A DNA stretch of 64,000 nucleotides from an uncultured bacterium (GTDB lineage Bacteria; Verrucomicrobiota; Lentisphaeria; Victivallales; UBA1829): NCBI GenBank assembly GCA_900548385.1, contig URKJ01000002.1, positions 36,212 through 100,211 of the forward strand. The letters are read 5' to 3'. This document shows, one piece after another, positions 10,829-32,415 of this stretch. Each line of letters begins with the position of its first letter. The first letter of the stretch is position 1. Under the pieces are notes generated by a model. That model searched no databases. It saw only the letters and a program-made list of their open reading frames with translations, and had not been told where the DNA came from. The translations under genes and the position numbers were made by a program.

Positions 10829-10841
10829 CAACCGGACCGGC

Positions 10842-11756: not shown

Positions 11757-12850
11757 AAGTTGCCAACCTCTTTGACAAGTGCATTCATGCGGTCCATCTG
11801 CTGTTCGATGGATTCCACCAATGCGATCTGGGTTCGTGCACGGTCCAGATTATGGCCCGCGCGGTGTGTTTTGAAATAAGTGTCGCCGGAAAGATAATCG
11901 GTCAGAAAACGCGTTCCGATTTCCAGCGTGATCAGTTTGCCGCTGAACGGCAGGTACTCAAACTCCACGGGATTCAGAAACGCTCCGGCGGACGAACAAT
12001 ACCCGCGCAGCAGCGCTTCGAACATCGGAAAACGCATTGTGACTTTGCTCAGATCGCGCTCATCTTCGGCGGCGGGGCTCGTCCCCGTCCGTACCATGTC
12101 GCCGAAATCGTAGTGCACAAGTCCGGGCATGACGGTATCAAGGTCGATCACGCACTTGCCGAGCCCGGTCACGGAATCAATCAGCACATTGTTGAGCTTG
12201 GTATCGTTGTGCGTGATGCGTTCGGGAATCGCCCCCTCGCGGTTCAGACGGATCAGCGTCTCCGCCTCCCCCTTGCGGGAAAGAACGAATTCGATCTCCG
12301 GCTCCGCCGTTTTGACGCGTCCGCAGACATCGGCACGGACCGCCTCTTCCAGATCGGCAATCCGTTTCGGCGTATTGTGAAAATCAGGGATCGTTTCGAC
12401 AAGACGTCCCGGCAGATCGACCAGATCCGCCTGAAAACGTCCGAATGCACGCGCGGCTTCATACGCCTGTTCCCCGGCTCTGAGCACATCATAGCTTTTC
12501 GCGTGCTCAATGAACAGATAGACGCGCCAGTAACTGCCGTCTGCATCACGGAACCACGTTTTACCGTCAAGAGCGGACACAAGCGTCAGAGTACTGCGCG
12601 AATCCCCCGCCTTGGAACTCAGATGTTCGGTCACGCGCCGGATATTCTCCATCAGCTGGACCGGATCGCGGAATATGGAGGTGTTGATCCGCTGAAGAAT
12701 ATAGCGGATCCGGCTGCCCGCCTGGTCGAACGCCACGGCAAACGTATCGTTGATGTGCCCGCTGCCGTAAGGCTCCGCCGTAATGAAATCACCGGGAATC
12801 TGAAACGCGGAACACAGTTTCCGAATCTCATGCATCGTCTTCATCGTCAC
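11753..12850 (-). CDS. N-acetylhexosamine 1-kinase-like anomeric sugar kinase (APH/choline-kinase fold)
   Basis: EPYGSGHINDTFAV, ITHNDTKLNNVLID, IDLDTVMPGLVHYDFGDMVR and LPFSGKLITLEIGTRFLTDYLSGDTYF closely follow my recollection of Bifidobacterium NahK. 4-nt overlap with both neighbours. Confidence 0.75.
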   Translation of the reverse strand: MTMKTMHEIRKLCSAFQIPGDFITAEPYGSGHINDTFAVAFDQAGSRIRYILQRINTSIFRDPVQLMENIRRVTEHLSSKAGDSRSTLTLVSALDGKTWFRDADGSYWRVYLFIEHAKSYDVLRAGEQAYEAARAFGRFQADLVDLPGRLVETIPDFHNTPKRIADLEEAVRADVCGRVKTAEPEIEFVLSRKGEAETLIRLNREGAIPERITHNDTKLNNVLIDSVTGLGKCVIDLDTVMPGLVHYDFGDMVRTGTSPAAEDERDLSKVTMRFPMFEALLRGYCSSAGAFLNPVEFEYLPFSGKLITLEIGTRFLTDYLSGDTYFKTHRAGHNLDRARTQIALVESIEQQMDRMNALVKEVGNL

Positions 12851-13752
12851 ACCTGAAACAGTTTTTCGGGATATTTCCCGGCTTTTACCAGGGCATCCAG
12901 CCCGCTCTTCACCACCGGTTTGTCTTCCTGATAGGTAACGCCGAACCAGGAATCCTCCGACGTCAGCACCTGTACCGACGCCTTTCCCTGCCGGACGAGC
13001 GTATCCGCCACAAACGGAATATAGAACTCGCTCTTGAGTTCCGTTCCATGAGCTCCGAGAAACTCCGTAAACTGTGTTTCAAGCGCATCGAACAGGGATG
13101 CCTGAAATCCCCACATATTCATGGAAACGATCTCGTCACCGGTAAAAACAACCGTCTTTCCATCCTCAAGAGTGCTGACGATCTTTCCATCCTTCCGTTC
13201 GATCTTCGTATGTTCAACCACGGTCTTGAGCGTACCGTCCGGATTCCGTTCGCAGATCCCGCGGGAGACCGATCCGTTTTCCGAGAGCGTGTTTTTCAGG
13301 AAAAATCCACACATGCAGAACGCTTTCGGATCGCCGGATTCCAGCGCACCTGCCAGCTTGCGGAAACCGTCCGCACCATAAAAATCATCCGCATTGATGA
13401 CCGCAAACGGCCCCTTGACCAGATTGCGCGCGGCATAAACCGCCTGCCCGGTCCCCCACGGCTTCACACGCCCTTCCGGAACCGTGAATCCCGCCGGAAG
13501 ATCGTCCAGCGACTGAAACGCATACTGAACATCGGCAACCGCTTCATAACGCGAACCGATCACGCGCTTGAACTCCTCTTCAATATCGCGGCGGATAATA
13601 AAAACGATTTTCCGGAAACCCGCACGAACGGCGTCGAACACGGAATAATCCATCAGGGTTTCGCCGTGCGGACCGAGCGCATCAAGCTGTTTGAGTCCGC
13701 CGTAACGGCTGCCCATTCCGGCGGCAAGCAGAACCAGTGTTTTTTCCATCAT
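12847..13752 (-). CDS. Sugar-1-phosphate nucleotidyltransferase
   Basis: N-terminal LVLLAAGMGSRYGGLKQLD nucleotide-binding loop and a later KPWGTGQAV motif. 301 aa. Translationally coupled to the kinase gene. Confidence 0.75.
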   Translation of the reverse strand: MMEKTLVLLAAGMGSRYGGLKQLDALGPHGETLMDYSVFDAVRAGFRKIVFIIRRDIEEEFKRVIGSRYEAVADVQYAFQSLDDLPAGFTVPEGRVKPWGTGQAVYAARNLVKGPFAVINADDFYGADGFRKLAGALESGDPKAFCMCGFFLKNTLSENGSVSRGICERNPDGTLKTVVEHTKIERKDGKIVSTLEDGKTVVFTGDEIVSMNMWGFQASLFDALETQFTEFLGAHGTELKSEFYIPFVADTLVRQGKASVQVLTSEDSWFGVTYQEDKPVVKSGLDALVKAGKYPEKLFQV

Positions 13753-13766
13753 TTGACTCTCTCCTT

Positions 13767-14747
13767 TTATGTTGATTGACGTAAGATCAGATCACAGGAC
13801 ACGACTTCCGGCGGAAGATTCGTTTTGCCGTTCAGCTGACGTTCCAGAAGTTCCGCAGCAACCTTGCCGATCGTTCCCAGATGAAGCGAAACCGACGAAA
13901 GTGCAGGCGTGAAAAAACGCGAAACGGCAATATCATCGAATCCGATCACCGCCAGATCAGCAGGAATCCGGACGCCGCGGCCTTCCGCTTCTTTCAGCAG
14001 CCCCATCGCCATAATGTCCGTTGCGCAAAGTACGCAGTCCGCCTCCGGATAGTGAGCACGGATATAGTTCAGCGCATTGACGCCGAACCGGAAACCCGCT
14101 CCGCCGGGGATAACGGGAATCCGCTCCGTTCCGCCGAAGCCGCGTTTGAAGCCGCGGCGCTTGGCGGAGTCCAGATGTCCCGAAAGATAAACCGGATGAC
14201 GGCGTCCCGTTTCGCGAAAATATTTTCCCGCAAGGAAGGCTCCGTATTCATTATCATGCAGAACGGTATTATAATCAAAACCGGGAATTTTTCCGATCAG
14301 GACATAAGGCACGGAACAGCTTTCCGCCATTCCGGCAAGTTTCCCGGCACCCGGAGTTCCCGCGACCACAATGACACCGGCAACCGATCCGCTCAGCATC
14401 CGCGCCTTGGCGGAATCAATGATATGATCGTCGTTCTCATCGAACGGCGTCACGGTGAAAACATGCTCATTTCCAAGGTGACGTTTGATATTGACCGTGA
14501 TCTCCGATATGAAATAATCCGGTTCGCCGGTATAGATCTCCGGATAGAAAAAAACCAGTTCCGGAATATCATTTTCCGATTTCAGCTTGCGCGATCCGGC
14601 AAAGTAACCGTACTTCTGCGCACTGTTCAAAATCCGCTTCCGGGTCTCCAGGCTGATACGCCCGTTTCCGGTGAACGCACGGGAAACCGTGGCGATCGAC
14701 ACCCCCGTTTTCTCTGCAAACTCCTGAATCGTGATCCTGTTTCTCAC
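13767..14747 (-). CDS. LacI-family transcriptional regulator
   Basis: MRNRITIQEFAEKTGVSIATVSRAFTGNGRIS HTH followed by a periplasmic-binding-protein-like sensor domain. Confidence 0.9.
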   Translation of the reverse strand: MRNRITIQEFAEKTGVSIATVSRAFTGNGRISLETRKRILNSAQKYGYFAGSRKLKSENDIPELVFFYPEIYTGEPDYFISEITVNIKRHLGNEHVFTVTPFDENDDHIIDSAKARMLSGSVAGVIVVAGTPGAGKLAGMAESCSVPYVLIGKIPGFDYNTVLHDNEYGAFLAGKYFRETGRRHPVYLSGHLDSAKRRGFKRGFGGTERIPVIPGGAGFRFGVNALNYIRAHYPEADCVLCATDIMAMGLLKEAEGRGVRIPADLAVIGFDDIAVSRFFTPALSSVSLHLGTIGKVAAELLERQLNGKTNLPPEVVSCDLILRQST

Positions 14748-14776
14748 CTGTCTGATCCTTCTGTTTTCGCAAATAA

Positions 14777-14790
14777 TGTACCGTTGTACA
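14777..14790. promoter_or_regulatory. Candidate LacI-type operator
   Basis: Inverted repeat TGTAC-CGTT-GTACA, 30 nt upstream of the LacI-family gene start. Confidence 0.25.
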
Positions 14791-14893
14791 ATAAAAAATC
14801 AAGCGCAACAGAGAAAATTTGTTGCGAAAATATTTACACAAAGAAAAAAGGAAAATTCCCGGTACAGAATAATAAAGGAGATTGAAACAACGC

Positions 14894-15742
14894 CTATTTC
14901 TTCAGGCCTTTTTGCTCCAAAAGATCCAAACCGATCAACAGATCGGACGCCCGGCTCAAGGCACGATCCCCCGTCCGGGAAAGATCGTCCGCCTTTTTCA
15001 GAGAATCAACCGGAATGCGCAACGATGAAGCTACGCGGATTTGCGGGACAAGACGCTCATAGCGCACCGCTTCCGCCCCATCCGGCGGCACCGGGACCAG
15101 CCACTTGCGATTCGAAACAGTTACAATTTTGCGCGGGAACGGACACCCCGCAGTCGACGCACCGATCCCGATCCCGCGATGGGAAGCGATCAATAAAGCG
15201 GCGAGAATCTCTCCCGCCCCGTGCGTACCGGGTCCCAGCAGAATCGCAGTATGCAGCACGGAAGGCGCAAGCAGAGTCCGGAGCGACTCCGGGCAGACCG
15301 TCCAATCTCCGGCGGAACAGCCACGCAAATCCAGGATCAGCCCCGGCGACTGCGCCGCTTTCCGCACTGTTTGGAGCAGCTCGCCAAACGTCTTTTCATT
15401 CAGCGTATTGATCCGCAGATACCAGAGTCCGTTTTTCAAGCGGAATGCCGGAACATCCGGCTCCGCTTTTGCGGGAACGGACGCCGGCTTCGCTTCCGCT
15501 TCCGGCACAACTCCGCTGCGGAGCGACCCCATCACGGCGGAAAGCGCCCGCCCGGAATCTGCGGGTGACAGAGATTGCAGGAATGCCGGATATTCCCGCT
15601 CCAGCATTTCGGTCAGCTCCTGAAACTCCCGCTGAAAAGAGTCTTTGAACAGGAGCGGTTTCGCCGTTTCCGGTGCGGACGGCTCCTCCCCGGAAAGCGG
15701 GATCAGAAGTCCGAGCGCAAGCAGAACGGAAAACGGCTTCAT
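14894..15742 (-). CDS. Secreted S41 (C-terminal processing peptidase)-like protein, catalytic dyad apparently substituted
   Basis: Start chosen at the internal Met (MKPFSVLLALGLLIPLSG signal peptide), 5 nt after the purE stop. GLILDLRGCSAGD resembles the S41 IIDLRGNGGG block. The positions expected for the Ser and Lys read GTHGAGE and STAGCP. Confidence 0.5.
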   Translation of the reverse strand: MKPFSVLLALGLLIPLSGEEPSAPETAKPLLFKDSFQREFQELTEMLEREYPAFLQSLSPADSGRALSAVMGSLRSGVVPEAEAKPASVPAKAEPDVPAFRLKNGLWYLRINTLNEKTFGELLQTVRKAAQSPGLILDLRGCSAGDWTVCPESLRTLLAPSVLHTAILLGPGTHGAGEILAALLIASHRGIGIGASTAGCPFPRKIVTVSNRKWLVPVPPDGAEAVRYERLVPQIRVASSLRIPVDSLKKADDLSRTGDRALSRASDLLIGLDLLEQKGLKK

Positions 15743-15746
15743 CGAC

Positions 15747-16253
15747 TCAGCCCAGCTTTGCGAGTTCTTCCTGAAGAGACGCATCGGCCTCTTCGACCTT
15801 GCGGCTCTGTTCCTCTCGGAACGCCTTGAGTTTCTCGGCAAGTCCGGAATCGGAAAGCGCAAGCATGGAAATCGCAAGCAAAGCCGCGTTCTTCGCTCCG
15901 GCTTTTCCGGCGGTTACTGTCGCCACGGGAATCCCCGGCGGCATCTGAACCATTGCCAGAAGCGCATCGAAACCGTTAAACGGCTCGCAGGCCATCGGAA
16001 TGCCGATGACGGGGAGCGTGGTATGCGCGGCAATCACTCCGGCCAGGTGCGCCGCCATTCCAGCCGCGCAGATGATGACCTTGTACCCTTCCGCCTCCGC
16101 GTTTTTCGCAAAATCAGCCGCGGCGTCCGGTGTGCGGTGCGCGGACATCACGCGCGCAGTGAAACCGACATTGAAACTGTTCAGCGTGTCAAAAGCGCCT
16201 TTCAGGGAAATCAGGTCGCTTTTACTGCCCATGATTATGGCAATTTCCGGCAT
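15747..16253 (-). CDS. purE: 5-(carboxyamino)imidazole ribonucleotide mutase
   Basis: IAIIMGSKSDL...MSAHRTPD...IICAAGMAAHLAGVIAAHTTLPVIGIP. 168 aa. Confidence 0.95.
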   Translation of the reverse strand: MPEIAIIMGSKSDLISLKGAFDTLNSFNVGFTARVMSAHRTPDAAADFAKNAEAEGYKVIICAAGMAAHLAGVIAAHTTLPVIGIPMACEPFNGFDALLAMVQMPPGIPVATVTAGKAGAKNAALLAISMLALSDSGLAEKLKAFREEQSRKVEEADASLQEELAKLG

Positions 16254-16269
16254 GGGAACCTCCTCTTTG

Positions 16270-16300
16270 ATAAAAAAGACGCGCCGCCGAAGCGGCGCGC
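16270..16300 (-). terminator. Intrinsic terminator after rpoZ
   Basis: Reverse strand reads GGCGCGCCGC-TTCG-GCGGCGCGTC followed by TTTTTTAT. Confidence 0.6.
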
Positions 16301-16324
16301 CGTAATTGCTTCATCCGGAACGGA

Positions 16325-16618
16325 TCAGTCGTTGGCCGGATGATTGTTTCTCATCTTGATCTCGCCGTTTTCGCGCCTTGCGGCTTCCTTGACGGCGTTG
16401 ATCTCCTTCAGGAAATCGTCCGGAGAACCGTCGAAGTTGGCGGCGAGTTTTCCTTCCGCGATCTCCAGCAGAGCCACGTCGATGTGGTTCTCATCTTTGC
16501 AGCGCACCATCGGGCGCGCTCCGCAGGCAAGCTCGTTCGCTCTTCTGGAAGCCAGAAGAATCAGCGTTTTGGCATCCGGGACAACCTGCCGGGCCCGTTC
16601 CAGATAATCGTTGTTCAT
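16325..16618 (-). CDS. rpoZ: DNA-directed RNA polymerase subunit omega
   Basis: 97 aa. ...KTLILLASRRANELACGARPMV...NHIDVALLEIAEGKL fits the omega-subunit pattern. Confidence 0.75.
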   Translation of the reverse strand: MNNDYLERARQVVPDAKTLILLASRRANELACGARPMVRCKDENHIDVALLEIAEGKLAANFDGSPDDFLKEINAVKEAARRENGEIKMRNNHPAND

Positions 16619-16638
16619 GGTATCAGTTTCTCCTGAAA

Positions 16639-18330
16639 TCAGTAATCAATGACGTCACGGTGTCTGTCGATCGTCGACAGATCGCCGCTCATCACGATCT
16701 GATAGTTTCGTTCAAAGTCATGGACCGCATCAAGGATATAGCGTTCCGCCAGCGGAACACGTTTCGGATCCTTCTTCGCATCGCGGAGCATCAGCAGAGA
16801 GACGAACACGAACGTTTCATTCTCGACCAGATTTCTCGCGCGGAGGTCATGATAAGCGGAATCCTTTCTGTCCGCAACGAACTGGACAGCCGCTTTCTGT
16901 TTTTCAAACATCTCGTCGACCATCTTCAGCAGACGGCAGTCGAGTCCGTCACAGGACATGCCGAGCATTTTCGTGATAATCGGATCAAGGACGCGCTGCA
17001 TCACGCCGCCGATCGCCGCGACGACCTGAAGCTGAGTGGTGCCTTCGTAGATGTTGGTGATGCGGGCGTCACGGTAGTAGCGTTCCGCATCGAAATCGTG
17101 CATATATCCCGTTCCGCCGTGAATCTGAATGCAGTCGTAGGCGACCTGGTTCGCGATTTCCGTGGCAAGAGCCTTGCACATCGGAGTCAGCACGGCGGCG
17201 ACCTTCGAATAGAATTTCGCTTTCTCGGAACGCTCGTCAAGCGCGATATGCGAATACCGCAGATCGACCATCTTCGTGGTCTCGTAAAGCAGCGCGCGGG
17301 CGGCGGTGACTTTGATCTTCATCTTTGCGAGCATGTCGTAAATCGCGGGGAACTGGTCGATGCTCTGCTTGAACTGCACGCGTTCGGCGGCGTATTTTTT
17401 CGCTTCGCGGTAAGCGGCTTCGGCAATGCCGAGCGCCTGTCCGCTGATCGCCACGCGGGCGCCGTTCATCAGACTCATGACGTACTTCGTCAGACCGCGG
17501 CGTTCCTGTCCGCAGAGTTCCGCCGGAACGTTGTTGTACTGAAGTTCGGCGGTCGGCACGCCGTGAATACCGAGCTTGTGCTCGATACGGCGGACCTTGA
17601 GTTCCGGACAGGCTTCGCAGATGAACATGGAAAGTCCGCGTCCGTCAACCGTTCCCTCTTTGGAACGGGCAAGCACGAGATGAATCTTCGAGCAGCCGTT
17701 GGTGATGAAGCGCTTCATACCGTTGAGATACCACTTGCCGTCGGCACCCTGCGTCGCTTTGAGACGGACGGACTGGAGGTCGGAACCGGAATCCGGCTCG
17801 GTGAGGTCCATGGAACCGTCCGCTTCGCCGGAAGCGAAACGCGGAAGATATTTCTGACGCTGTTCCTCGGAACCGAACTCGCAGATCGTTTCCGCAATAT
17901 CCTGAAGACCGATCAGGTTCTGCAGGGAAGCGTCGGCGCGGGCGACCATTTCCGTCATCATCGTATAGATGGTAGTCGGGAAATTGAGTCCGCCGTACTG
18001 ACGCGGAAGCATGACGCCCATGACTCCGGCGTCCTTGAGATCCTTGAGATTCTTGTCGGTCAGCGGATGATACTTGACCACGCCGTCCTTGAAATACGGC
18101 CCCTCTTCGTCCACCTGCCGGGAACGGGGAGCGATGCGTTCGCCGGTGATCTCGCCGATCACTTCCATCACGCGTTTGTAGTTATCCATCGCATCTTCGT
18201 AATTCTCCGGTGCGAAATCGAACTGTTCCGCCTGCTTGTAATCGTTTTCACGAAGCGCGACGATCTCTTCCATTTCCAGATTCCGGAGCGTGAACATCAG
18301 ATCCGGATTGTCGGTAAAAAAGTTGGACAT
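16639..18330 (-). CDS. Acyl-CoA dehydrogenase (long, ~560-aa form)
   Basis: 563 aa. ACAD middle and C-terminal patterns: LTEPDSGSDLQS, KWYLNGMKRFITNG, IHGGTGYMHDFDAERYYRDARITNIYEGTTQLQ. Confidence 0.85.
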   Translation of the reverse strand: MSNFFTDNPDLMFTLRNLEMEEIVALRENDYKQAEQFDFAPENYEDAMDNYKRVMEVIGEITGERIAPRSRQVDEEGPYFKDGVVKYHPLTDKNLKDLKDAGVMGVMLPRQYGGLNFPTTIYTMMTEMVARADASLQNLIGLQDIAETICEFGSEEQRQKYLPRFASGEADGSMDLTEPDSGSDLQSVRLKATQGADGKWYLNGMKRFITNGCSKIHLVLARSKEGTVDGRGLSMFICEACPELKVRRIEHKLGIHGVPTAELQYNNVPAELCGQERRGLTKYVMSLMNGARVAISGQALGIAEAAYREAKKYAAERVQFKQSIDQFPAIYDMLAKMKIKVTAARALLYETTKMVDLRYSHIALDERSEKAKFYSKVAAVLTPMCKALATEIANQVAYDCIQIHGGTGYMHDFDAERYYRDARITNIYEGTTQLQVVAAIGGVMQRVLDPIITKMLGMSCDGLDCRLLKMVDEMFEKQKAAVQFVADRKDSAYHDLRARNLVENETFVFVSLLMLRDAKKDPKRVPLAERYILDAVHDFERNYQIVMSGDLSTIDRHRDVIDY

Positions 18331-20264: not shown

Positions 20265-20641
20265 GGGATACTCCTTTTTGGTTAATTTTTGGTTTGAACA
20301 ATCAAACTATAATTTGTCAACTAAAATTCTAACTTGATACTATAATCCGCTTTTTGCAAAAAACAAATCCGCCGTAAAAATATTTTCATGGAATCCGGTC
20401 GAATCCTGTTCAAACGGCGGGAGACACTGGCCGCAACGAAACAATACGGAATGAACGGAATTTGTAAAGTCAACCCGCAGAATTACATTTTTGTAAATCC
20501 GCCCTCCGGCAAACCGCCGTTTTTCAAGTGTAAAACAGAAACGCCCCCGGTTGGCACATGAAATGCTTATCAGAAAAATAACGCTGCGTTGAATATTTAT
20601 TTTCAGAAACACGAACAAAACAACTACGGAAAGACACAAAA

Positions 20642-22177
20642 ATGACAAACAATCGTTTCACTGTTTCGATCGGAGTTTTTCTTGTCGCCTGTACAACTTC
20701 TCTTTTCGGCGGGGAGGAGCCGGGAAAAGAAAAAGTAAAACGCATTGAATGGTTGCAGGACAATGCGCAGAAATACATGTCGACAAAAATCTATGAACTC
20801 AAGCATGTCAGGGCGGCGGACCTCACGCCGTTTGTCGAGGGAGCCGTCAAGCGTTACCGGACCGACTCCCGGATTCAACGGCTGAGTTACGCGGACGGCG
20901 GAAAGGAGTATCTGGTCGTTTCAACGGGAACCGCAATGCTGCCGTATGTCGACGAGATCATCCGGGCACTTGACCGCCCCTCCCCCAAAACCGACGCCAT
21001 GGGCTCCAACATTGAGGGAACCGGAATCAGCAACTTCGTCTACTACACCAAATACCGCACAAGTCAGGAAATGAAGAACATCGTCAACAGGAACATTCTC
21101 GACGACAACGGCCGCGCCTATGCCGACGTCGCCTGTGCCATGATCTATTGGAAAAGCTCCGTTTCCAAAGGGAAACAGATAGAAAAATGGCTGGCGGCAC
21201 TCGACCGTCCCGTTCCTCAGGTCGCCCTGACCCTGAAAGTCTATGAGGTGCGGAAAAGCGTGCTGCGCGACCTCGGTATTGATTATGTCGCATGGAAGAA
21301 CGGTCCCGGACTTGATCTGTTCGGAGCCGGAGCCGACATGTTCAATTCATGGGGAATCGAAAAGCTCGTGGAAGTGCTCGGCACAAAGGGATTCGACTAC
21401 CTGACCAGTTCGCAGTTCGCGTTCGGCGGCATCTTCTTTGCGCCGCAGTTCGATGCGAGTTTCGTCAAAATTCTGGAACAGGAAGGAATCGCCACGGTCG
21501 CCACCTCCGCCTCCGTCACGCTGGTGAACGGCGCGGACGCCACGATCACGTTCTCTCCCGATTTTCAGAATATCGTCAAGAGCGACAACGATAAAACAAC
21601 CGTGGCGGAAGGCGGCACAACCACCTATACGCTGAACGTGGGCAGCTCCATCATCAATTTCAAGGGAGACAAGTACACGAAAGAGCAGAGCAAGGACGGC
21701 TATCTCTATTATGAAGAAGTCCCCGGAAACGTTTCCGGAACGATCATGTTCGGATACGATTTCACGGTGTCCTCCCCGGTGGAAAGCAACAATTTCGGAG
21801 TCCAGCTGGTGAACTCGACCGGAATGGCGTCCAGTCTCTGCCTTGACGTCGGAAAAGAGCAGCTGATCGGAACATGGGAACAGACTTATGACGTCAAGCA
21901 GAACATCGGCATTCCGTTCCTTTCCGACATTCCGATCCTGAAATATCTCTTCGGAACGGAAAAAATTTCAAAATCGACCTCGAAAGTTTTCGTGACGCTT
22001 CAGGCGGAGTGGATCACGCCCGACACCAAGCTCGCCTCATGGGCGGGAAAACTGCTGGCGGAGGATGAGATCATTCAGGCAGCCGCCCCCTCCCCCGTCG
22101 CCGCGGAGAAAGCCGCGGAGGACGCGAAGGAAGCCAAAGCGCTTGACAAGGCTTTCGACAAAGAACTCGGCAAGTAA
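20642..22177 (+). CDS. Secretin-family outer-membrane protein, probable lipoprotein (liposecretin-like)
   Basis: 511 aa. Signal peptide ending in the lipobox LVAC. One secretin N-domain-like unit (KIYELKHVRAADLTPFVEGAV...YLVVSTGTAMLPYVDEIIRALDRP). Secretin-domain entry QVALTLKVYEVRKSVLRDLGIDY. C-terminal hallmark IPFLSDIPILKYLFG. Confidence 0.7.
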   Translation: MTNNRFTVSIGVFLVACTTSLFGGEEPGKEKVKRIEWLQDNAQKYMSTKIYELKHVRAADLTPFVEGAVKRYRTDSRIQRLSYADGGKEYLVVSTGTAMLPYVDEIIRALDRPSPKTDAMGSNIEGTGISNFVYYTKYRTSQEMKNIVNRNILDDNGRAYADVACAMIYWKSSVSKGKQIEKWLAALDRPVPQVALTLKVYEVRKSVLRDLGIDYVAWKNGPGLDLFGAGADMFNSWGIEKLVEVLGTKGFDYLTSSQFAFGGIFFAPQFDASFVKILEQEGIATVATSASVTLVNGADATITFSPDFQNIVKSDNDKTTVAEGGTTTYTLNVGSSIINFKGDKYTKEQSKDGYLYYEEVPGNVSGTIMFGYDFTVSSPVESNNFGVQLVNSTGMASSLCLDVGKEQLIGTWEQTYDVKQNIGIPFLSDIPILKYLFGTEKISKSTSKVFVTLQAEWITPDTKLASWAGKLLAEDEIIQAAAPSPVAAEKAAEDAKEAKALDKAFDKELGK

Positions 22178-22201
22178 AACATCAACATCGGGAGTTTCAC
22201 A

Positions 22202-24052
22202 ATGACAGACATGAACAAATTGATGGCAGCGGCGGCACTCGGAATCTTTTCCTTTGCCGGAGCCCACGCACAGTACGCACCGTATCCGGAGAGGGGACAG
22301 CAGCCGGAAAGCCAGGCCGCAACCGGACCGTATGACAAGACCGCTGTTCACGCACAACTCAGGCTGAACATCGACAAGGATGTGGGAAAGGTCCATTTCA
22401 TCCGCAACAACAACGATCCGAACGTGGTGACGAAAGCCTATGTGCTCAAACACGCAGATCCGTATGAGATCCGCCCGTTTATCAGAAACGCGGTCTCCTC
22501 GCGCCGGGTCAAAACTTCTCCGACCACGGTGGAGTGCATCAAATACTCCGACGGCACGGGCGTTCTGCTGGTTTCCGCGGAAGATTACCGGTTTACGGAT
22601 GAATCCAAACCCGGAATGAGCATCGACGCCATCGTCGCAATGCTGGACAAGCCGCGCCTGACTTCCTCCTCCGGCTCGCTCACCTATCTGTATTTCCCGA
22701 AATACTTTTCCGCGGAGGCTCTCTGTTCCCTGCTGGCACAGGTCGGCGCGAACGTGGAGGGCGACAATGTCGAACTCCAGTACGGACGTGACAGTCTCGG
22801 CTTTGACGAGGGGCTCAACGCCATGCTGATGTACGTTCCCCGTTACAGCGCAAAACATCTGGAACGCCTGATCAAAATCTACGACATTCCACCCTACGAT
22901 GTCGATGTCAAGTACAAACTGTATGAGATCGACGCGGAGAACGACACGAAAATCGGACTCGATTTTCAGGCATGGAAAAACAACGGCGGAGCGGATATTT
23001 TCAGCGTCGGCGCACGTTTCCGCGACGGCTGGAGCGCCAACTGGGCGGACGGTCCGAACCGGACCGGAACCAGCAACACCCGTTTCCTGAACTTCAACCC
23101 GAAATGGAACACCCGCTATCTGGATTTTCTCGTTTCAAAGGGAAAGGCGAAAGTCGCGACAAAGGGAGTCATCCGGATCGACACGACCGCAACCGCGACC
23201 GTGACCGCCACGACGCAGCTGTTCAACATTGAAAACGGCGAACAGCTCGAAGCAGGTTCCGGCGTGGAAGGATACATCTTCGTCCCGGATGCCGGTTATG
23301 CCGTAACCGCCGTCAATTCCAAAGGCGTGACGGTCATCGACACGGCAAACGGAGTAGTCCCCTCCGGCGCCTCGTATCCGTGGATGATTACAAAGCTGAA
23401 AAACGGCAATTCCGAATTCTACACGATCAAATCCAAAGGCGGCACGTTCGACAACGGAAGAAGCGCCATCAAAATCGCCTACGTCTCCGTGACCGCGACG
23501 GAAACGGATGCCTCCGGAAACAGTGTAACGGTTGATGTTCCGTGGAACACCGGCGCGCAGTATCTCGCGCAGAAAGGCTTCAAGGTGGAAACGACCGCTT
23601 CCTCCTACGGCTTCACGCTCGCCCTGACGCCGGTCGTCGCGGAAAAAACAACCACGATGGACATCGACATCAGAAATGAAAGCCTGATCGGATGGAATTC
23701 CGACGGAACACCGCGCATCAGCAAGGACACCGGCCTGCGGACCAGAGTCATGATGAACAACGCCGGACAGACCTTCGTGGTCGGCGGGCTTTCCAAACGC
23801 TCTCTCGTCACGAGCGACGGCGGTGTGCCATGGTTGAAAAAACTTCCGCTTCTGGGCTATCTTTTCTCAACGGAATCGCAGGCGACGAAGCGTTCGCAGC
23901 TGGTTCTCGTTCTGGAATGCACCGTTGTCGATACTGTCGGTGCAAAACTGGACGGCAAAGCCGGGGAGGCAATCCGCGAAGCGAACGGCAGACTGACTGA
24001 AGCCGGAGTCAAAATTCCGTATGCAAACACGCAATGGGGATTCCGGAGATAA
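22202..24052 (+). CDS. Secretin-family outer-membrane protein (second, divergent paralogue)
   Basis: 616 aa. Sec signal peptide (FAGAHA/Q). N-domain KAYVLKHADPYEIRPFIRNAV...VLLVSAEDY...IDAIVAMLDKP. Secretin entry DVDVKYKLYEIDAENDTKIGLDF. C-terminal VPWLKKLPLLGYLFS. 24 nt after the first secretin gene. Confidence 0.7.
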   Translation: MTDMNKLMAAAALGIFSFAGAHAQYAPYPERGQQPESQAATGPYDKTAVHAQLRLNIDKDVGKVHFIRNNNDPNVVTKAYVLKHADPYEIRPFIRNAVSSRRVKTSPTTVECIKYSDGTGVLLVSAEDYRFTDESKPGMSIDAIVAMLDKPRLTSSSGSLTYLYFPKYFSAEALCSLLAQVGANVEGDNVELQYGRDSLGFDEGLNAMLMYVPRYSAKHLERLIKIYDIPPYDVDVKYKLYEIDAENDTKIGLDFQAWKNNGGADIFSVGARFRDGWSANWADGPNRTGTSNTRFLNFNPKWNTRYLDFLVSKGKAKVATKGVIRIDTTATATVTATTQLFNIENGEQLEAGSGVEGYIFVPDAGYAVTAVNSKGVTVIDTANGVVPSGASYPWMITKLKNGNSEFYTIKSKGGTFDNGRSAIKIAYVSVTATETDASGNSVTVDVPWNTGAQYLAQKGFKVETTASSYGFTLALTPVVAEKTTTMDIDIRNESLIGWNSDGTPRISKDTGLRTRVMMNNAGQTFVVGGLSKRSLVTSDGGVPWLKKLPLLGYLFSTESQATKRSQLVLVLECTVVDTVGAKLDGKAGEAIREANGRLTEAGVKIPYANTQWGFRR

Positions 24053-24137: not shown

Positions 24138-27100
24138 TTACCAGTTGTGGTACGCATCCACATCATAGAAATTCAGCTTATCGACATACGGCGACCAGGA
24201 ATCCCGCACCTGCGGATCCTCCACAACGATTTTCAGCGGACCGGTCACGCCGCCGGCCCCCCAGCGGTCGTAAACACGGATCGTCAGCGTATTCTCCCCG
24301 CCGAACCGGATCAGTTCCGGCGGAATCCGGTAATTCCGCTTTACGGCATGGGCATTCGGAACCTTGTCGAGCGTCGTCTCGCCGATTTTGACGCCGTTGA
24401 AATAAGTCCAGTCCGCATCGTCGACCGGACCACCGGCAAGGCGGAGCGTGAACCGTTTCCACGCTTCGGGAATCGTGACTTTCACCCGGATCCACGCATA
24501 ACCGTCGTACATTTTTTTCATATTCGCCGGAGTCTCCGAGGGATAACGGTAATACGGGTTATTCTGAGTGAATCCCTGCTTCTCCCAACAGACGCCGAGT
24601 TTATACGGCTTGAATCCGACGGTGTCGGAAACTTTGCCGCTGTTCCTCCCGTCCAGTTTCAGCATACCGTCTTTCAGCACGGTTTCCGCAAAAAGCGGAG
24701 TGACCGTGTTGTGTCTCATCCGCGGCGATGAAAAAAGTTTGAGATCCCTGCCAAGCGCAATATTCATATTATTGAAAATCGCGTTCCAGACCCGGCTGAC
24801 TTTCTCGCGCATCCAGAACGACTCTTCCATCTGCGCCGGTGAGAGATTCATCACGATCACCGCGCCGGTCCGGAAATCATAGCGTCCGAACAGAGCCGGC
24901 AACGTCGTCACGGTCCATTCCGGCGGAGCGTCCAGAACGTCCATTTCCCGCGCTTCCCGGAAATAGAGGTCGGCATCCGGAATCCCCGCAAACAGCGGAT
25001 CGTGTTTCGGAACGAGCGCACGGAATACCGGTCTCTTCGCCGTTTTCAGTTTCACGGGAAGCAAATCCAGCGGAGCACCCGGCAAAGCGACGTATGCGCG
25101 TTCGCGGTGAGCGGCGAAATCTTTGCGGAACGCCGCTTTCCGATTCTCCGGAACGGGATTCCTGCCGAGAATCACCACCTGGCGGTTCCCGATCTCCGCC
25201 GGATCCTCTCCGCTGAGCTTCTCATACACCATCCCCATGCGCCGGAGCTGTTTTTCATGCTCCGCATCGCCCAGATAAACAACGCTCTGCGCCAGAAGCG
25301 GCAGATTCGGACGGCTCATCTCCACAAGCATGTTATCCACCAGACGGGTCGCAACGGGATCAAGGCCGTAACGGGACGTCACGTCGAGCTGACAAAACAG
25401 AATCTGTCCGTGTTCTTTCCGCAGCTCCATCAGCGCGGCGAACATCAGGTTGAATCCGCAGTCGACAATCGTCGTGAAATTGCCGTAACTGGGTTTGCGG
25501 ATCACGTTTCCGGCAACAATGCCGCCGTTGCCGCATTTCCATTTGGAACGCGGATAATGCGGTGTTTCCTCCGCGGAAAGAACAAACGCCGGAACGGAAT
25601 CCGCAGAGCCGCGCCAGTCGCTGAAATCCCCGTCTTTCAGCCCGCGCACATAAAGACTGTCCGGACGGCGGATAAACGCGTTGCGGTAACTCGGCGACTC
25701 AAACACCAGATTGCCGAGATTGCACTGCTTCTGCTCGAAAATCAGGATTTTGAGTCCATGTTCCACCCGTTCTTCCCGTTCCAGCTGCTGCAGGAATTCC
25801 GGCACATGCTCTCCCAGCGCCTCCTGACCGATAATCAGCAGACGGCACTGTCCGGCGTCGTCCGGCGTTGCGACTTTGCGGAACGGGAAACCCGCTTTTC
25901 TCAGCATGGCTTCCGTCTTGCCGACTGGATCGTACAGTCCGGCGGAAACATTATGGAACTCCGGCGGAACGTGTTTCGGAAACACCTGAAGCGCCAATTC
26001 ATCCGTACCGTATGCGGTGCCGTTCCGGTAAATCTCCAACAGCAGTTTGCCTTCGGAACGCTTTGCGACCTCCGGCGCGGAAAGCCGGATCGGATGCTTC
26101 AGGATCCCGCCCGGACTGACCGTCGCGCTCTCTTCCCCCTGCGAAACAGTCTTTCCCTCCAGGCGGAACTCCCAGCGGAAACGGAGTTTCTGGGGAGTCG
26201 TTCTGTCGTTGACCGCGACAATGCTTTTTTCAAATTTCTCGCCGGAGAAAAACGCGTGATCCTTGCTGGTAAAGTCATCCGTTCTGCCGCCGAGAAACAC
26301 CAGAAGCGGACGGAACGCTTCGCGCATCACATGATAAAGTCCCTCCGGGCGGGAGAAATCGGTCATCTGATCCGTATACCCCGGACGGTCCGGCTTCGCT
26401 CCGGCGGTCTTGACCCGGTTATCCACTTTCGCCACCGCGCGGTGATTATACATGGAGCCATACGACCGGAACGCCTGATAAAGATCGTAACCATGCTGGA
26501 AATCTCCGAGCGCGGACATATCGTAGGCGCGCCATGCCCGGACCACATTCCGGTACATCAGTTCACAGACCGCGTTATAATTTGCGTTGCGTGCCGCATA
26601 GGCGGAAAAAATCCCGTCCGACAGATACGGAACCGGACGGTTTTCCCGTGCGAACACGGAATCGCCGAAAAACCGCGCGGCATGTTCCGCCGCCATGATC
26701 CTCCCGACCGGACCGTCAAAATATTCAAACTGACGCTGAAATGTAAAGTTCGACTCCACGACCATCAGCGGCTGTTTACGCTCCGACTCCGACCACTGCT
26801 TCGGCCAGTCCTCCTGTTCCTGAAGCGGTGTTCCCATCGACTGATAGTTCATGGAAGTGAAAATCTTTCCGGAATTGCCGCCCGCATGCTGAAACAGTTC
26901 CCTGCTCGGATCAAGCGACCGCATCAGCGTCTCCGCTACACGGGCGAAAGCACGAGCCCGGACCCGTTTCTGCGGAACATACGCGGTGTCGGTCAGTTTC
27001 GCCGGGTCCTGACACCACGGGTAATGGCAGGTGTTCATATCGGTGTACCACATCAGAATCGACGGGTAATTGCCGTAATGCTCCAGAAAACGCTCCACCC

Positions 27101-29432
27101 ATTCCCGGTACAGCGCCATATCCTCGCCCTCATACGGCGGCATCGGAAACAGATTGTAAAGTCCCTGCCGATCCGATTCCCGCAGATAAGGAACGAATCC
27201 GCGCTCGCTGTTCCTCTCCAGTGGATTGAAGCGAACCGTATTGTAATTCATCTCTTTGGCATGGGCGACGTATGCCGCCATTCCACGTTCGCTACCGTAA
27301 AACACACTCGTCCGTTCCACGGCGGGATGCGCCCACATCCGCAGACGCGTCTTCCTGCCGTTCAGACGGAACTCCCCGTTCTCCACCCACATCTCGCGGA
27401 AACCGAAATCCGTATCCGGAAGCGCATCCGCTTTCTTTCCGTTGACGGTCAGTGAAACGGATTGCGTATACAGTTCCGGTTTCTCACAATCCCAAAGAAC
27501 GGGATCGCGCCAGTTCTCCCGGAACACCACACGCTGATCCGCCTCTCCCGTCAACGGAAACTGCCGGATAAAAACTTTGTCTCGTTCTCCCGGACGGTGA
27601 TAGCGGAATTCAACCGCCCCCTCACCCTTTATGCCCTGCGGATTCCGGATCCGGGTGCGCATCTCCAGATGTTTCTTCCGGAACGACGGAAACGCAACTG
27701 CGTTTTTCAACGACACCGGAGACGGCGACGACTCCAGCCAGACGTCATCCAGCGCCAGCGCATGATGATCCCCGCGGTCCGGATAGATCTGCCAGAGCGC
27801 CACGATGGAACGGTCCAGAAAAACCGTCACAACGTTCTCTTTCTCCAGCCAGTCGGTCACGTCGATCCGGCGGGCATTGGGAACAACTTGAAGCGCGCGG
27901 AAATCCTGACGGAACGAATCCAGAAGTCTGCCGTTCAGATAGACGCGTCCGTAGTTTCCGTGCAGATTGCTGAAGTTCAGCCAGATGCGCGTTCCTTTCC
28001 ACTCATCCGGCACGGTGAACGAACGCTGATACCATCCCGCCGTGTCGATCCGGCGCGGAGTCTCCTGAGGCGTAAGTTTGCCGTCTTTCTCATAATAATG
28101 GTGAAAATGCCGGGAACGCGGACTTCCAGGAACGCGCGAATAGAGCTGCCGGACCTCACGCAGAGGCGCATAGGAGTAATTCTCCGCACGGAACATACGC
28201 CATACGCCATTCAGGGAGACACTGCAGCGAACGCCTCCGTGAGTCCGCCGTTCGGCATCTTCAAGGCTCCACAGCTTCCGTTCCAGCGGCGACGCCGTTT
28301 TCACATTCAGCAGCGCAAGGTCCTGCGCGGAAGGGATCTGCGCGGCGGGATCCAGCGTCACGCCGTCCGCCACTTCCACCGAGGTCAGCCTTTCCCATCC
28401 ATCCGGCAGTTCAATGCGGCCCTGCGGTGCGTCGTCGAAACAGACCCGCATCCGTCCGCCTTCCGGTTCCAGCGTGAGCTTCAACGGTCGCGTCAAATCC
28501 AGAACATAGGGCGATTCCAGCACTTTCCCGCCCGCATTCAACGCGAGATTGCCGGAAGCCCCCATCGCGGTAACGGTCAGCGTCCGTTTTCCGCTTTTCA
28601 GCACAAGCAGCGGAGACGGTGCGGACAGACGTTTCGTCCGGAACCGGAGCACGGTCTCCATCCGTCCCCCATCCCGGCGGACGGAGTTCAGCGGCAGTTT
28701 CCGCAAACTCTGTTTTCTGCCGCCGATGGCTTCTGCAAGGACCTCGTCATCGGAGAGCTGACGGTCGTAAATCCGGAGGTCGTCATACGCGCCCCCGCCG
28801 ACTTCAGCTTTGAAACGGTCCGATCCGGCTTTGCCGAGCCAGATGTTCAGAGCGGTTTTCAGACGGAAATCCGGCTTTTTCCATTTCTCCTCGGAACGCT
28901 TTCCGGCAGGACGCCCGTCAATGTAAACGGCGACTTCCCCTTTCGGAATGCTCCACGAAAACGCCAGATGAACCCATTTTCCCGCTTTCAGCGGATTTTT
29001 CACAATAACCTGCCGCTGATCCGGCGCGCAAACGCTCAGTTCCAGCCCTCCGGTATTCTTCGGCTTGATGAAATAAAACCGGAACTGTTCCGGCTTATAT
29101 CCGTAAACAAGCCAGTGATCACCGGGCGCGGCGCCGTCCCATTCCGGCTTGAAAAAGAAAGAAACAGTCCCTTCCCGGCACTCCATTTCCGGAAGACGGT
29201 TCATATTCAGGGTTGTTGCCTGGTCATAAGCATACCGGCGGACTTCCAAAGCCCGTCCGTTCACGCCGTCCACATAACGCGGCTGACCGGAAATCTGCGC
29301 CGCATGATAGCGTTCCCCGCTCGGTCCGCTGATATCCGCCGTTCCATCCAGCGGAAGATACAACTGCGGAGCCGCCGAAGAAAGCAACGGCACACCGCAG
29401 GCCAGAACTATTTTCATGATACGATTCATCAT
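24138..29432 (-). CDS. Giant secreted LamG/ConA-like + GH2-like multidomain glycosidase (paralogue 1)
   Basis: Start set at the ATG at 29432, directly after GGAGGAGGAG (1764 aa); the track ORF extends to 29546, across the upstream gene's stop. Signal peptide MMNRIMKIVLACGVPLLSSA. LamG-like N-domain. GH2-like order of blocks: LNGVWRM.., WLNFSNLHGNYGRVYLNGRLL, FGFREMWVENGEFRLNGRKTRLR, MNYNTVRF, NYPSILMWYTDMN, QPLMVVES. C-terminal galactose-binding-like domain. Confidence 0.65.
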   Translation of the reverse strand: MMNRIMKIVLACGVPLLSSAAPQLYLPLDGTADISGPSGERYHAAQISGQPRYVDGVNGRALEVRRYAYDQATTLNMNRLPEMECREGTVSFFFKPEWDGAAPGDHWLVYGYKPEQFRFYFIKPKNTGGLELSVCAPDQRQVIVKNPLKAGKWVHLAFSWSIPKGEVAVYIDGRPAGKRSEEKWKKPDFRLKTALNIWLGKAGSDRFKAEVGGGAYDDLRIYDRQLSDDEVLAEAIGGRKQSLRKLPLNSVRRDGGRMETVLRFRTKRLSAPSPLLVLKSGKRTLTVTAMGASGNLALNAGGKVLESPYVLDLTRPLKLTLEPEGGRMRVCFDDAPQGRIELPDGWERLTSVEVADGVTLDPAAQIPSAQDLALLNVKTASPLERKLWSLEDAERRTHGGVRCSVSLNGVWRMFRAENYSYAPLREVRQLYSRVPGSPRSRHFHHYYEKDGKLTPQETPRRIDTAGWYQRSFTVPDEWKGTRIWLNFSNLHGNYGRVYLNGRLLDSFRQDFRALQVVPNARRIDVTDWLEKENVVTVFLDRSIVALWQIYPDRGDHHALALDDVWLESSPSPVSLKNAVAFPSFRKKHLEMRTRIRNPQGIKGEGAVEFRYHRPGERDKVFIRQFPLTGEADQRVVFRENWRDPVLWDCEKPELYTQSVSLTVNGKKADALPDTDFGFREMWVENGEFRLNGRKTRLRMWAHPAVERTSVFYGSERGMAAYVAHAKEMNYNTVRFNPLERNSERGFVPYLRESDRQGLYNLFPMPPYEGEDMALYREWVERFLEHYGNYPSILMWYTDMNTCHYPWCQDPAKLTDTAYVPQKRVRARAFARVAETLMRSLDPSRELFQHAGGNSGKIFTSMNYQSMGTPLQEQEDWPKQWSESERKQPLMVVESNFTFQRQFEYFDGPVGRIMAAEHAARFFGDSVFARENRPVPYLSDGIFSAYAARNANYNAVCELMYRNVVRAWRAYDMSALGDFQHGYDLYQAFRSYGSMYNHRAVAKVDNRVKTAGAKPDRPGYTDQMTDFSRPEGLYHVMREAFRPLLVFLGGRTDDFTSKDHAFFSGEKFEKSIVAVNDRTTPQKLRFRWEFRLEGKTVSQGEESATVSPGGILKHPIRLSAPEVAKRSEGKLLLEIYRNGTAYGTDELALQVFPKHVPPEFHNVSAGLYDPVGKTEAMLRKAGFPFRKVATPDDAGQCRLLIIGQEALGEHVPEFLQQLEREERVEHGLKILIFEQKQCNLGNLVFESPSYRNAFIRRPDSLYVRGLKDGDFSDWRGSADSVPAFVLSAEETPHYPRSKWKCGNGGIVAGNVIRKPSYGNFTTIVDCGFNLMFAALMELRKEHGQILFCQLDVTSRYGLDPVATRLVDNMLVEMSRPNLPLLAQSVVYLGDAEHEKQLRRMGMVYEKLSGEDPAEIGNRQVVILGRNPVPENRKAAFRKDFAAHRERAYVALPGAPLDLLPVKLKTAKRPVFRALVPKHDPLFAGIPDADLYFREAREMDVLDAPPEWTVTTLPALFGRYDFRTGAVIVMNLSPAQMEESFWMREKVSRVWNAIFNNMNIALGRDLKLFSSPRMRHNTVTPLFAETVLKDGMLKLDGRNSGKVSDTVGFKPYKLGVCWEKQGFTQNNPYYRYPSETPANMKKMYDGYAWIRVKVTIPEAWKRFTLRLAGGPVDDADWTYFNGVKIGETTLDKVPNAHAVKRNYRIPPELIRFGGENTLTIRVYDRWGAGGVTGPLKIVVEDPQVRDSWSPYVDKLNFYDVDAYHNW

Positions 29433-29473
29433 AAATCTCCTCCTCCTTATATCTTTGATCAGTGAACAATAAA

Positions 29474-30292
29474 TCAGCGTTTCTCTCTGCCGATCCAGAA
29501 ACTGTTTGCACCCGGAGTATTGCTGACATAAGTGTCTGTCGGGCACTCCGCCAGAACCCGTTTTTCGCTGTAAGAGGCAACATGTCCGTCGCAGAACAGC
29601 ATATTGCCGGTTCCGGAATGCGGAACATTGCCGTTAAACTTGTGCCAGTGCCAGCAACTGACGAATGGACTTGCCTGATAGATCTCCGCGACCAGAAGCG
29701 CTTTGCTCGGCGTATGAACCAGTTTCAGCGTTTTATAGCCAGCCTTTGCTTCTTCGGAATCCGCCGCGATTCCGTCTTTCAATCCGAACCCGGTATTGTT
29801 CAGTTCCTTGTTCATTCCGTACCGGAACCGGTCGCCTTGGCTTCCGCCGTAAGGAAAATCATTTTTCCGGAACTGGGTCGGAACAACAGGACTCTTACAC
29901 CAGAAGAACGAACTGCGCATCATCCCCTTGGTCTTTCCCTCCGTATTGGGATTCCCCGGGTTATCCATATTCGGATAGGTATTGAGATAAGAACCGAGCT
30001 TGGTGAACCAGCCGATATTCGCGGGATCGTCGGTAACACCCGCACCCGCATCGTAACCGTTGTAACAAAGCGGCAGAAACTGATCGTTATCGTTGGCATA
30101 CATGAAAAACGCGGTCCCGATCTGCTTCTCCCGGCTCCGGCAGTCTGCCGCACGCGCGGCTTCCCTCGCCTTGTTGAACGCCGGAAGAATCATTCCGGCA
30201 AGAATTGCAATGATTGCAATTACGATGAGAAGTTCTATAAGAGAGAACTTCAACACCCTTTTAATCCGTTTATTGCTCCGTTTCATACTCAT
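29474..30292 (-). CDS. Pseudopilin-like protein B (prepilin-type N-terminus + H-X9-DG)
   Basis: MSMKRSNKRIKRVLKFSLIELLIVIAIIAILAGMILPAFNKAREAA... C-terminal HSGTGNMLFCDGH. Lies 41 nt upstream of the giant hydrolase. Confidence 0.85.
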   Translation of the reverse strand: MSMKRSNKRIKRVLKFSLIELLIVIAIIAILAGMILPAFNKAREAARAADCRSREKQIGTAFFMYANDNDQFLPLCYNGYDAGAGVTDDPANIGWFTKLGSYLNTYPNMDNPGNPNTEGKTKGMMRSSFFWCKSPVVPTQFRKNDFPYGGSQGDRFRYGMNKELNNTGFGLKDGIAADSEEAKAGYKTLKLVHTPSKALLVAEIYQASPFVSCWHWHKFNGNVPHSGTGNMLFCDGHVASYSEKRVLAECPTDTYVSNTPGANSFWIGREKR

Positions 30293-30341
30293 TTTCCATT
30301 CCTTTCTCTTTTTCTGTTATATTTTTTTGAGACAATATGTT

Positions 30342-31546: not shown

Positions 31547-31617
31547 TCCCGTTGAGCCGATTTCAAAAGTATTGGCTCTACAAATAAAAAAACAGACTGT
31601 TAAAAGGATTTGAAACG

Positions 31618-32415
31618 ATGAAAATGAAGGCTGAGAACGCAATATCCCATACACATTTTACCCTTGTAGAACTCCTGGTCGTAATTGCGGTGATTGCAAT
31701 CCTTGCAAGCCTTCTTCTGCCGGCACTGAACTCGGCGAGAGAAAAAGCCCACTCCGTCTCCTGTACCAACAACCTGAAATCCCTGGGACTGGCTTCCATA
31801 CAATATTCCGGCGATTCCGAAGACTGGCTGGTCCCGAACTGGAACGGCGACGGAACGGAATACTCTGTCCAAAACGGCAAGGAACGAACATGGATCGGTC
31901 TGTTGTGCGGATTCGATAAAGAGGCCGGCACCAACTGGAAACTCTGGAGCAGACCGGGGCCTTACGGCATCGCATGGAGCTGCAACCCAAGTCCCTCCGG
32001 CAACGGTTCACCGCCTCCGCGAAGAGCCGGACAGTTTTCCTGTCCGGCAGATCCGACACTGCTGACGTGGGGAAGTTATCTGACGAATTATCATATCAAT
32101 CCTTACCTGCATGGAGGTGCCGTGAACAGCAATGACGACCGGCCCGGCAATACCAGAAAGATCACGCAGATTACCAGTCCGGCACAGGCGGTCAGCATGG
32201 CGGAGGGGCTGAGACCGTCGGCAATCTTCGTGTATGGCATGGACTACAACGGCAGCGGCTCCGGAAAGACGGTCAACTACACCCGTCACACCGGAACCGC
32301 CGGATATCTGCTCACAGACGGACACGTCGCCAGAATGAGCGAAGCCCGTGCTTTGAGTACGCACGGATACGATGGCACCGCCAACCGCATTTTGAGAGCC
32401 GGTTTCCGTCCGTAA
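31618..32415 (+). CDS. Pseudopilin-like protein C (prepilin-type N-terminus + H-X9-DG)
   Basis: [44 protein letters not shown]... C-terminal [13 protein letters not shown]. Lies 42 nt upstream of the next hydrolase. Confidence 0.85.

Follow-up and report, generated by a model that had tools for sequence, protein, structure and literature searches.

A two-gene module of divergent secretins conserved across Lentisphaerota and its possible role as a shared outer-membrane channel

Secretins are the textbook giant homo-oligomeric pores of the outer membrane and have been studied both as gates of virulence systems and as models of membrane-protein assembly. A 64,000-nucleotide stretch of DNA from an uncultured bacterium of the order Victivallales (Lentisphaeria; assembly GCA_900548385.1, contig URKJ01000002.1, positions 36,212 to 100,211), hereafter the window, raises the question of what is achieved by encoding two different secretins side by side. 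The two genes in question, which we term A (the short paralog, 511 amino acids; 20642..22177) and B (the long paralog, 616 amino acids; 22202..24052), are both on the plus strand, as are all of their features described below, and are separated by a 24-nt spacer (22178..22201). A prediction made from the sequence alone (hereafter the original prediction) had delineated these two open reading frames (ORFs), and their coordinates, lengths and gap were reproduced in the window sequence.

Both proteins are bona fide members of the secretin superfamily, as had been predicted. The Pfam Secretin model (PF00263; gathering cut-off 27.5 bits) recovers A with 42.1 bits and B with 69.5 bits, and the motifs cited in the original prediction are present in the respective translations (KVYEV...LGIDY and IPFLSDIPILKYLFG in A; KLYEI...IGLDF and VPWLKKLPLLGYLFS in B). 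AlphaFold2 (AF2) monomer models built from family alignments, with a mean predicted local distance difference test score (pLDDT) of 73.6 for A and 72.9 for B, match GspD, InvG, PilQ, pIV, and RcpA in Foldseek searches with a probability of 1.00 over 300–600 aligned columns and along their full length. The E-values range from 3e-19 to 1e-10 for A against secretins of type II secretion systems (T2SS), type III secretion systems (T3SS), and type IV pili (T4P) as well as pIV and RcpA, and the match of B to GspD attains 6e-15. The two proteins are distant paralogs, in keeping with the strong divergence already recognized from the sequence: BLASTP aligns about 280 residues of their N-terminal parts with 24% identity (E=2e-18), and comparison of the family profiles with hhalign yields a probability of 100 and an E-value of 1.8e-47 over 431 colinear columns with 21% identity.

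The AF2 models reveal a common layout in A and B, with a signal peptide followed by two N-domains and a long-stranded secretin domain. The original prediction had assigned a single N-domain to each protein; this count has to be raised to two, each with a β-α-β-β-α topology in the AF2 secondary structure. The ring-building N-domains of A (residues 46–110 and 129–187; 20777..21202) show Foldseek matches to the N-domains of XcpQ, and those of B (residues 75–148 and 159–227; 22424..22882) align with their counterparts in A. In Pfam searches, the Secretin_N model gives a sub-threshold match to A (residues 48–114), and neither N0/STN nor AMIN domains were detected in A or B at E-values of up to 1. 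The secretin domain of A (residues 193–457; 21218..22012) encompasses a low-confidence loop (residues 216–273) and the C-terminal IPxLxYLF motif, while that of B was delimited with Pfam and AF2 (residues 233–576; 22898..23929). The barrel region of B is about 110 residues longer than that of A in the hhalign alignment. This excess corresponds to a B-specific, β-rich insert (approximately residues 353–460; 23258..23581) that is apparent both as gaps in the hhalign alignment and as strands in the AF2 model, with block-mean pLDDT of ~71–89 and near-invariant positions across family B (A370, Y407, and G419); the Thr/Ala-rich insertions that had been noticed in the B barrel correspond to this folded element. 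A further pair of features lies right after the first barrel strand, where each protein has a highly conserved loop (residues 216–273 of A, 21287-21460; residues 247–313 of B, 22940-23140). These loops are the sole internal segments with a monomer pLDDT below 50, and they also harbor the family-specific motifs with the strongest conservation, viz., WKNGPG...PQFDxSF in A and DFQAWKNN...FNPKWNTxYLDF in B. To judge from the models, these loops are candidate sites of contact between subunits or with the membrane.

Homologs of the two proteins were found in Lentisphaerota, namely in Victivallales and Lentisphaerales, the nearest coming from metagenome-assembled genomes (MAGs) of human-gut Lentisphaeria. 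Family A has more than 200 relatives in Lentisphaerota and family B more than 700; when each GTDB species was represented by a single genome, 524 B relatives were recovered, often several in a genome. Carriers of the pair include Victivallis vadensis DSM 14823 (L085 8318-11755) as well as the complete genomes zth2 and WC36. When we examined whether the two genes are adjacent in relatives by classifying every ORF of 86 loci with family-A and family-B hidden Markov models (HMMs), an A gene was found immediately upstream and on the same strand of all 84 B genes with at least 600 nt of 5' sequence; the five B genes that have no A partner begin no farther than ~350 bp from the end of a contig. All six distant relatives examined (38–49% identity to B) likewise have a short secretin directly 5' of the long one, with flanking genes that differ in every case (ammonium transporter, DnaJ/GrpE, FeoAB, tRNA synthetases, V-ATPase, and methyltransferases). 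A search begun from the other side, with a distant A protein, also led to an A-B pair, here with a 21-nt gap, and neither an A-only nor a B-only locus was seen among the loci examined. The bicistronic secretin pair is an autonomous module typical of the phylum Lentisphaerota, with the order A then B being fixed. A search of the available literature on paired or heteromeric bacterial secretins and on Lentisphaerota secretion systems turned up no account of bacterial secretins that are tandem or heteromeric, nor of such an A-B pair.

This module has also been multiplied and has diverged as a unit. Many genomes carry several A-B pairs, and tandem A-B-A-B arrays occur at four of the surveyed loci (L002, L004, L007, and L044); of the six distant relatives, three have such arrays. 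On a single 5.6-Mb contig, the DNA shared by two loci (L033 and L049) comprises exactly the A-B coding unit, with 83% nucleotide identity. Over 77 distinct pairs, the pairwise identities of the A proteins correlate with those of the B proteins (r=0.96; none of 999 permutations in a Mantel test reaches this value), and the 16 comparisons between paralogous pairs within a genome, which span identities from 0.38 to 0.90, give r=0.98 and a mean difference of 0.024. These high correlations indicate that the pairs duplicate and diverge as units without swapping of partners. Together with the synteny and the search from the A side, they provide strong backing for the two-gene secretin unit put forward in the original prediction; the A-B pair is more than a chance pair of paralogs, being a conserved, modular, and multi-copy two-secretin unit across the phylum.

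The arrangement of the genes carries signs of coupled expression, in the form of the gap between A and B, which ranges from a 4-nt overlap to 46 nt in the relatives, and a Shine-Dalgarno-like site for B (GGGAG, 8 nt 5' of the ATG within the spacer of the window pair). The intergenic region 5' of A (20265..20641), which is divergent from etfB, contains σ70-like sites, for example TTGGCA-17-AAAAAT at 20551-20579, that are matches to the consensus only. We propose that A and B would be made together and assembled into one outer-membrane channel complex, which might take the form of a mixed hetero-oligomeric ring or of two tightly coupled rings, and that this complex would work in trans for an inner-membrane type IV filament machine whose genes lie at another place in the genome. 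A hetero-oligomeric pore is the most attractive and simplest reading that the pairing suggests, and we regard the physical co-assembly of A and B as evenly poised on the genomic evidence. For the overall reading, i.e., a modular two-secretin unit that co-assembles and serves a filament machine in trans, we estimate a probability of roughly 0.5.

As to the place of the two families among known secretins, the HMM of each family detects the other with median scores of 116 and 145 bits, compared to only 44–69 bits for the family profiles against the top-scoring solved structure in each main secretin class (pIV, GspD, and PilQ). A and B are each other's closest relatives in a clade outside the characterized classes, and the two families would stem from an old duplication. 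Both also score far under the cut-offs of the NCBIfam equivalog models for the secretins GspD, PilQ, MshL, SctC, HofQ, and Amuc_1098; for instance, A and B attain 34.9 and 69.3 bits with GspD (TIGR02517; cut-off 351), 43.8 and 64 bits with PilQ (TIGR02515; cut-off 284), and 40.4 and 58.3 bits with SctC (TIGR02516; cut-off 238). They share with the T2SS GspD/PulD/XcpQ and the T4P PilQ proteins the C-terminal PF00263 domain, an N3-like domain immediately preceding it, and a Sec signal peptide, and with GspD and PilQ, which are the best sequence matches of B, a full-length fold (Foldseek 1e-10 to 1e-19). However, they lack the N0-N1-N2-N3 array of GspD, having two N-domains only, and the AMIN or N0 domain of PilQ. 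Moreover, unlike GspD and PilQ, they are always encoded as two divergent paralogs side by side and not with gspC-M or pilMNOP, no pilMNOP genes having been found beside the pair in the six distant-relative loci.

Two known systems are near in concept to the proposed role. XphA/XqhA of Pseudomonas aeruginosa is an orphan GspC-GspD unit that works with the Xcp T2SS in trans, as related in the portion of PMC6567927 that cites Michel et al. 2007. Like the proposed A-B complex, it is a two-gene outer-membrane unit located away from its machine and acting in trans, but the partner is a GspC homolog and not another secretin, the unit backs up a secretin that is already resident instead of being the only one, and it is a single-species curiosity as opposed to a phylum-wide, multi-copy module. 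In the mitochondrial T2SS-derived system of some protists, GspD and GspDL are co-occurring paralogs with divergent C-domains, for which the authors suggest an elaborated pore (PMC8134430). Co-assembly is putative there as it is for A and B, and the proteins are eukaryotic and nuclear-encoded, their N-domains are split off into separate proteins, and there is no operon.

Which machine might the pair serve? As the original prediction had correctly observed, the window has no genes for a secretion ATPase or platform protein, with T2SSE, T2SSF, and prepilin peptidase domains absent from any substantial ORF of its 64 kb. We extended the survey to the 10-kb flanks of the 86 loci, and gspC, gspE, gspF, gspG, and related genes were found neither there nor in the window. 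Clustering of all flank ORFs also failed to uncover any other recurrent neighbor family, the clusters consisting of antisense shadow ORFs, scattered genes with FTLIELL-type prepilin-like motifs, and the local synteny of close relatives. A scan of all flanks for the Walker-A motif of GspE/PilB/PilT gave three matches, one of which is a false positive from a DEAH helicase and the other two PilT-like. The latter are stand-alone T2SSE-domain ATPases (357–365 amino acids; L017 15973-17046 and L074 9169-10263) from two related MAGs, which lie among housekeeping genes ~4.6 kb from the A-B pair; they show that an ATPase of the retraction type is present in Lentisphaerota, too.

The sole machinery found physically joined to an A-B pair is a Tad-like operon, rather than a T2SS of the GspE/F type. 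At the L033 locus, a single strand encodes in succession A, B, RcpC/CpaB, a CpaF/TadA-type ATPase fused to an FHA domain, two single-domain T2SSF proteins of the TadB/TadC type, and DUF192, FHA, and PEGA proteins; B and rcpC are 249 nt apart with no terminator-like site between them. This operon is widespread in Lentisphaerota (e.g., L033 12004-19919; L087-L091 ~9170-17100). In all five other loci examined, it has the same content, with RcpC in first place, and neither the operon nor its vicinity contains a secretin; two of these five are on chromosomes that also bear A-B pairs elsewhere (ZTH and OY787460). Inside the operon, genes for a secretin, TadZ, a Flp pilin, and a prepilin peptidase cannot be recognized, a composition that is unusual for a diderm. 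A Tad-like operon without a secretin and A-B pairs without a machine are thus complementary, and the operon, with its RcpC, FHA-CpaF, TadB, TadC, DUF192, FHA, and PEGA components, would be the best current candidate for the partner of the A-B complex, a partnership that we put forward tentatively. Equally tentative, and short of even odds, is the combined picture in which A and B would be the two co-evolving subunits of an obligate hetero-oligomeric main secretin that is also the plug-in part of a secretin-less Tad-like machine. In this picture, a genome with several pair variants could furnish channels that differ in specificity, for use in secretion or in the display of pili.

The relationship to the established Tad secretin is partial. 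The L033 pair resembles the RcpA/CpaC and RcpC/CpaB arrangement in lying beside rcpC, cpaF, tadB, and tadC, near the canonical place of rcpA, but A and B are not RcpA-like in sequence, neither has a Pfam match to the N-terminal domain of the Tad secretin (PF13629), and the linkage was seen only once, at L033, and not in the window. Denise et al. (PMC6668835) report that secretins, which supply type IV filament systems with their outer-membrane component, have been co-opted repeatedly and that those of the Tad systems are monophyletic. A second filament system is apparent in ZTH (CP119760; L087 775-5120), where a gene cluster with PilM_2 (614 amino acids) and an Amuc_1102-family member, comparable to the Akkermansia Amuc_1098-1102 pilus locus, is found on the strand opposite to the Tad-like operon and ~4 kb away from it; the secretin of this cluster lies beyond the stretch examined. 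Given this cluster and the separate Amuc_1098-type PilQ that Lentisphaera araneosa is reported to have for its T4P (PMC4960237), a type IVa pilus-like system probably has its own secretin.

Several points weigh against the co-assembly of A and B and their service to a machine in trans. All characterized secretins that we know of are homo-oligomers built from one protein, and the strict adjacency of the genes could equally denote co-regulation of two separate pores. The co-divergence of the two families is partly explained by their shared phylogeny and shared genomic location. The Tad-like linkage is restricted to one of the 84 pairs and one of the six Tad-like operons, the L033 pair is a recent duplicate, and the nearest relatives of its operon (ATPase identities of 85% and 77%) lack the pair, so that the join of pair and operon is not conserved in these two. 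RcpA is undetected by the family-A profile and reaches 38 bits with the family-B profile. Finally, with a survey that spans 10-kb flanks, the PilM/Amuc_1102-type cluster and the PilT-like ATPase are also candidate partners.

One alternative is that A and B form two independent homo-oligomeric secretins, co-transcribed for joint timing, with each serving a different machine or substrate class (e.g., a Tad-like pilus and a T2SS-like exporter). Such a division of labor would sit well with the complete architecture and own signal peptide of each protein, with the occurrence of more than one type IV filament system in Lentisphaerota (the Tad-like operon, the PilM/Amuc_1102 cluster, and the PilT-like ATPase), and with homo-oligomerization being, as far as we are aware, the rule for characterized secretins. 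Yet it fails to predict the fixed-order adjacency in 84 of 84 cases, the duplication of the unit alone, and the within-genome divergences that are matched to ~0.02; no locus with only one of the two genes was seen, and the multiple pairs in a genome would need both functions to be multiplied every time. We hence consider independent pores rather unlikely.

Another possibility, which is compatible with a heteromeric pore, is suggested by the neighborhood in the window, viz., that a T2SS-like system relying on DUF1559 pseudopilin-like proteins for the export or display of the adjacent giant glycosidases has the pair as its dedicated outer-membrane conduit. The window pair does border at least five FTLIELL-type (DUF1559/N_methyl) genes, which lie beside very large genes for GH2-like, GH10, and arabinofuranosidase-like proteins, with LacI, GntR, and AraC regulators in this cassette region; in addition, the T2SS GspD proteins are the best solved matches of B, and a filament system would have its outer-membrane part in a secretin, as cited above. 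While the adjacency to this pseudopilin-glycosidase block noted in the original prediction thus holds for the window, it is not conserved: the genes that surround the pair in relatives are unrelated ones with housekeeping roles, and prepilin-like genes occur in the 10-kb flanks of just 22 of the 86 loci, with a density of 0.2 per 10 kb, a quarter of the 0.78 per 10 kb in the window. Further, no GspE/GspF-type gene is near any pair, and none of the pseudopilin-like proteins that were inspected has Gly(-1). The proposal that the pair is the obvious conduit for the cassettes is not upheld by these neighborhoods, and a dedicated glycosidase system appears unlikely.

A yet weaker case can be made for a division of roles within the pair, in which A would be a self-piloting liposecretin of the HxcQ type and would target B to the outer membrane or act as its pilot. 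This idea, which was also part of the original prediction, stems from the signal peptide of A in the window (20642..20707), where LVAC with Cys17 fits a canonical lipobox as in the HxcQ-type liposecretins and no obvious AXA site is seen, and from the absence of a pilotin gene near the pair among the window ORFs; the B signal peptide is of the signal-peptidase I type (AHA/Q). The lipobox is indeed present in the window protein, and lipidation of A, as predicted from this motif, may be real in its lineage; however, as a family trait it does not stand. Of the 104 family-A members whose N-termini were inspected, only seven have a lipobox-like motif of any kind, and most have plain signal-peptidase I sites (e.g., VYA/EK and VHA/EK). 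The canonical form is restricted to the window A and its 95%-identity cluster (P0001), with relatives at 74–84% identity having LIVC, LAVC, LVVC, or AVFC, or lacking the Cys altogether. The lipobox cannot account for the pairing, given that the pairing is universal and the motif is not conserved, and the N-termini of the 104 relatives rule out an HxcQ-like liposecretin or pilot as a property of family A. As A also keeps a full secretin barrel and not a small pilotin fold in the AF2 and Foldseek analyses, and both proteins have a complete secretin domain, the pilot model is not supported and is to be regarded as very improbable.

Lastly, an origin of the pair as a remnant of filamentous-phage (pIV-type) secretin genes, to which the best solved match of family A (f1 pIV, 60 bits) and the matches to PHROG phrog_1012 (protein IV; 53 and 80 bits) might point, is effectively refuted by IMG/VR, which holds only distant inovirus pIV genes (22–29% identity) and no family-A member, by the lack of phage genes in the window and in the flanks of the six distant-relative loci, and by the vertical conservation of the families across the phylum.

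If A and B co-assemble, they would constitute the first bacterial hetero-oligomeric secretin known to us, raising new questions on stoichiometry, symmetry, and gating, and would offer a concrete way into the question of how proteins or pili are moved over the outer membrane in Lentisphaerota, a phylum of polysaccharide degraders that abound in guts and sediments. The analysis also exposes a complementary oddity in the form of a conserved Tad-like operon without a secretin. As cultured strains carry the pair (e.g., V. vadensis DSM 14823), the question is directly testable.

The prepilin-like genes of the window are located at 29477-30316(-), 31588-32412(+), 36691-37557(+), 40038-40937(+), and 41729-42967(+), and comparable genes are found in the flanks of about 20 loci (e.g., L004 6271-7053, L064, and L085 684-1502). 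None of the five proteins in the window and none of the 22 motif-bearing genes elsewhere has Gly at position -1 of the hydrophobic segment, this position being occupied by H, Q, K, N, I, S, T, and other residues; the Pfam N_methyl matches begin at model position 7. As far as is known, canonical prepilin peptidases require Gly(-1). Canonical processing of these DUF1559/N_methyl proteins is therefore doubtful, and, going by their sequences, they may not be processed as true pseudopilins.

The cassette region further contains two paralogous giants of 1802 and 1774 amino acids (24138-29546(-) and 44364-49688(+)) that carry Laminin_G_3 at the N-terminus as well as GH2-like domains, each accompanied in its block by a regulator (LacI or GntR) and a prepilin-like gene. 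Further cassette partners at 527-4078(-) (1183 amino acids) and 32458-35841(+) (1127 amino acids) have no Pfam match. The ORF at 50422-51039(+), located in a stretch of low GC content (0.485), shows similarity to no more of serine hydroxymethyltransferase than its C-terminal quarter (profile positions 291–399 of 399) and may be a gene fragment or have a mis-set start.

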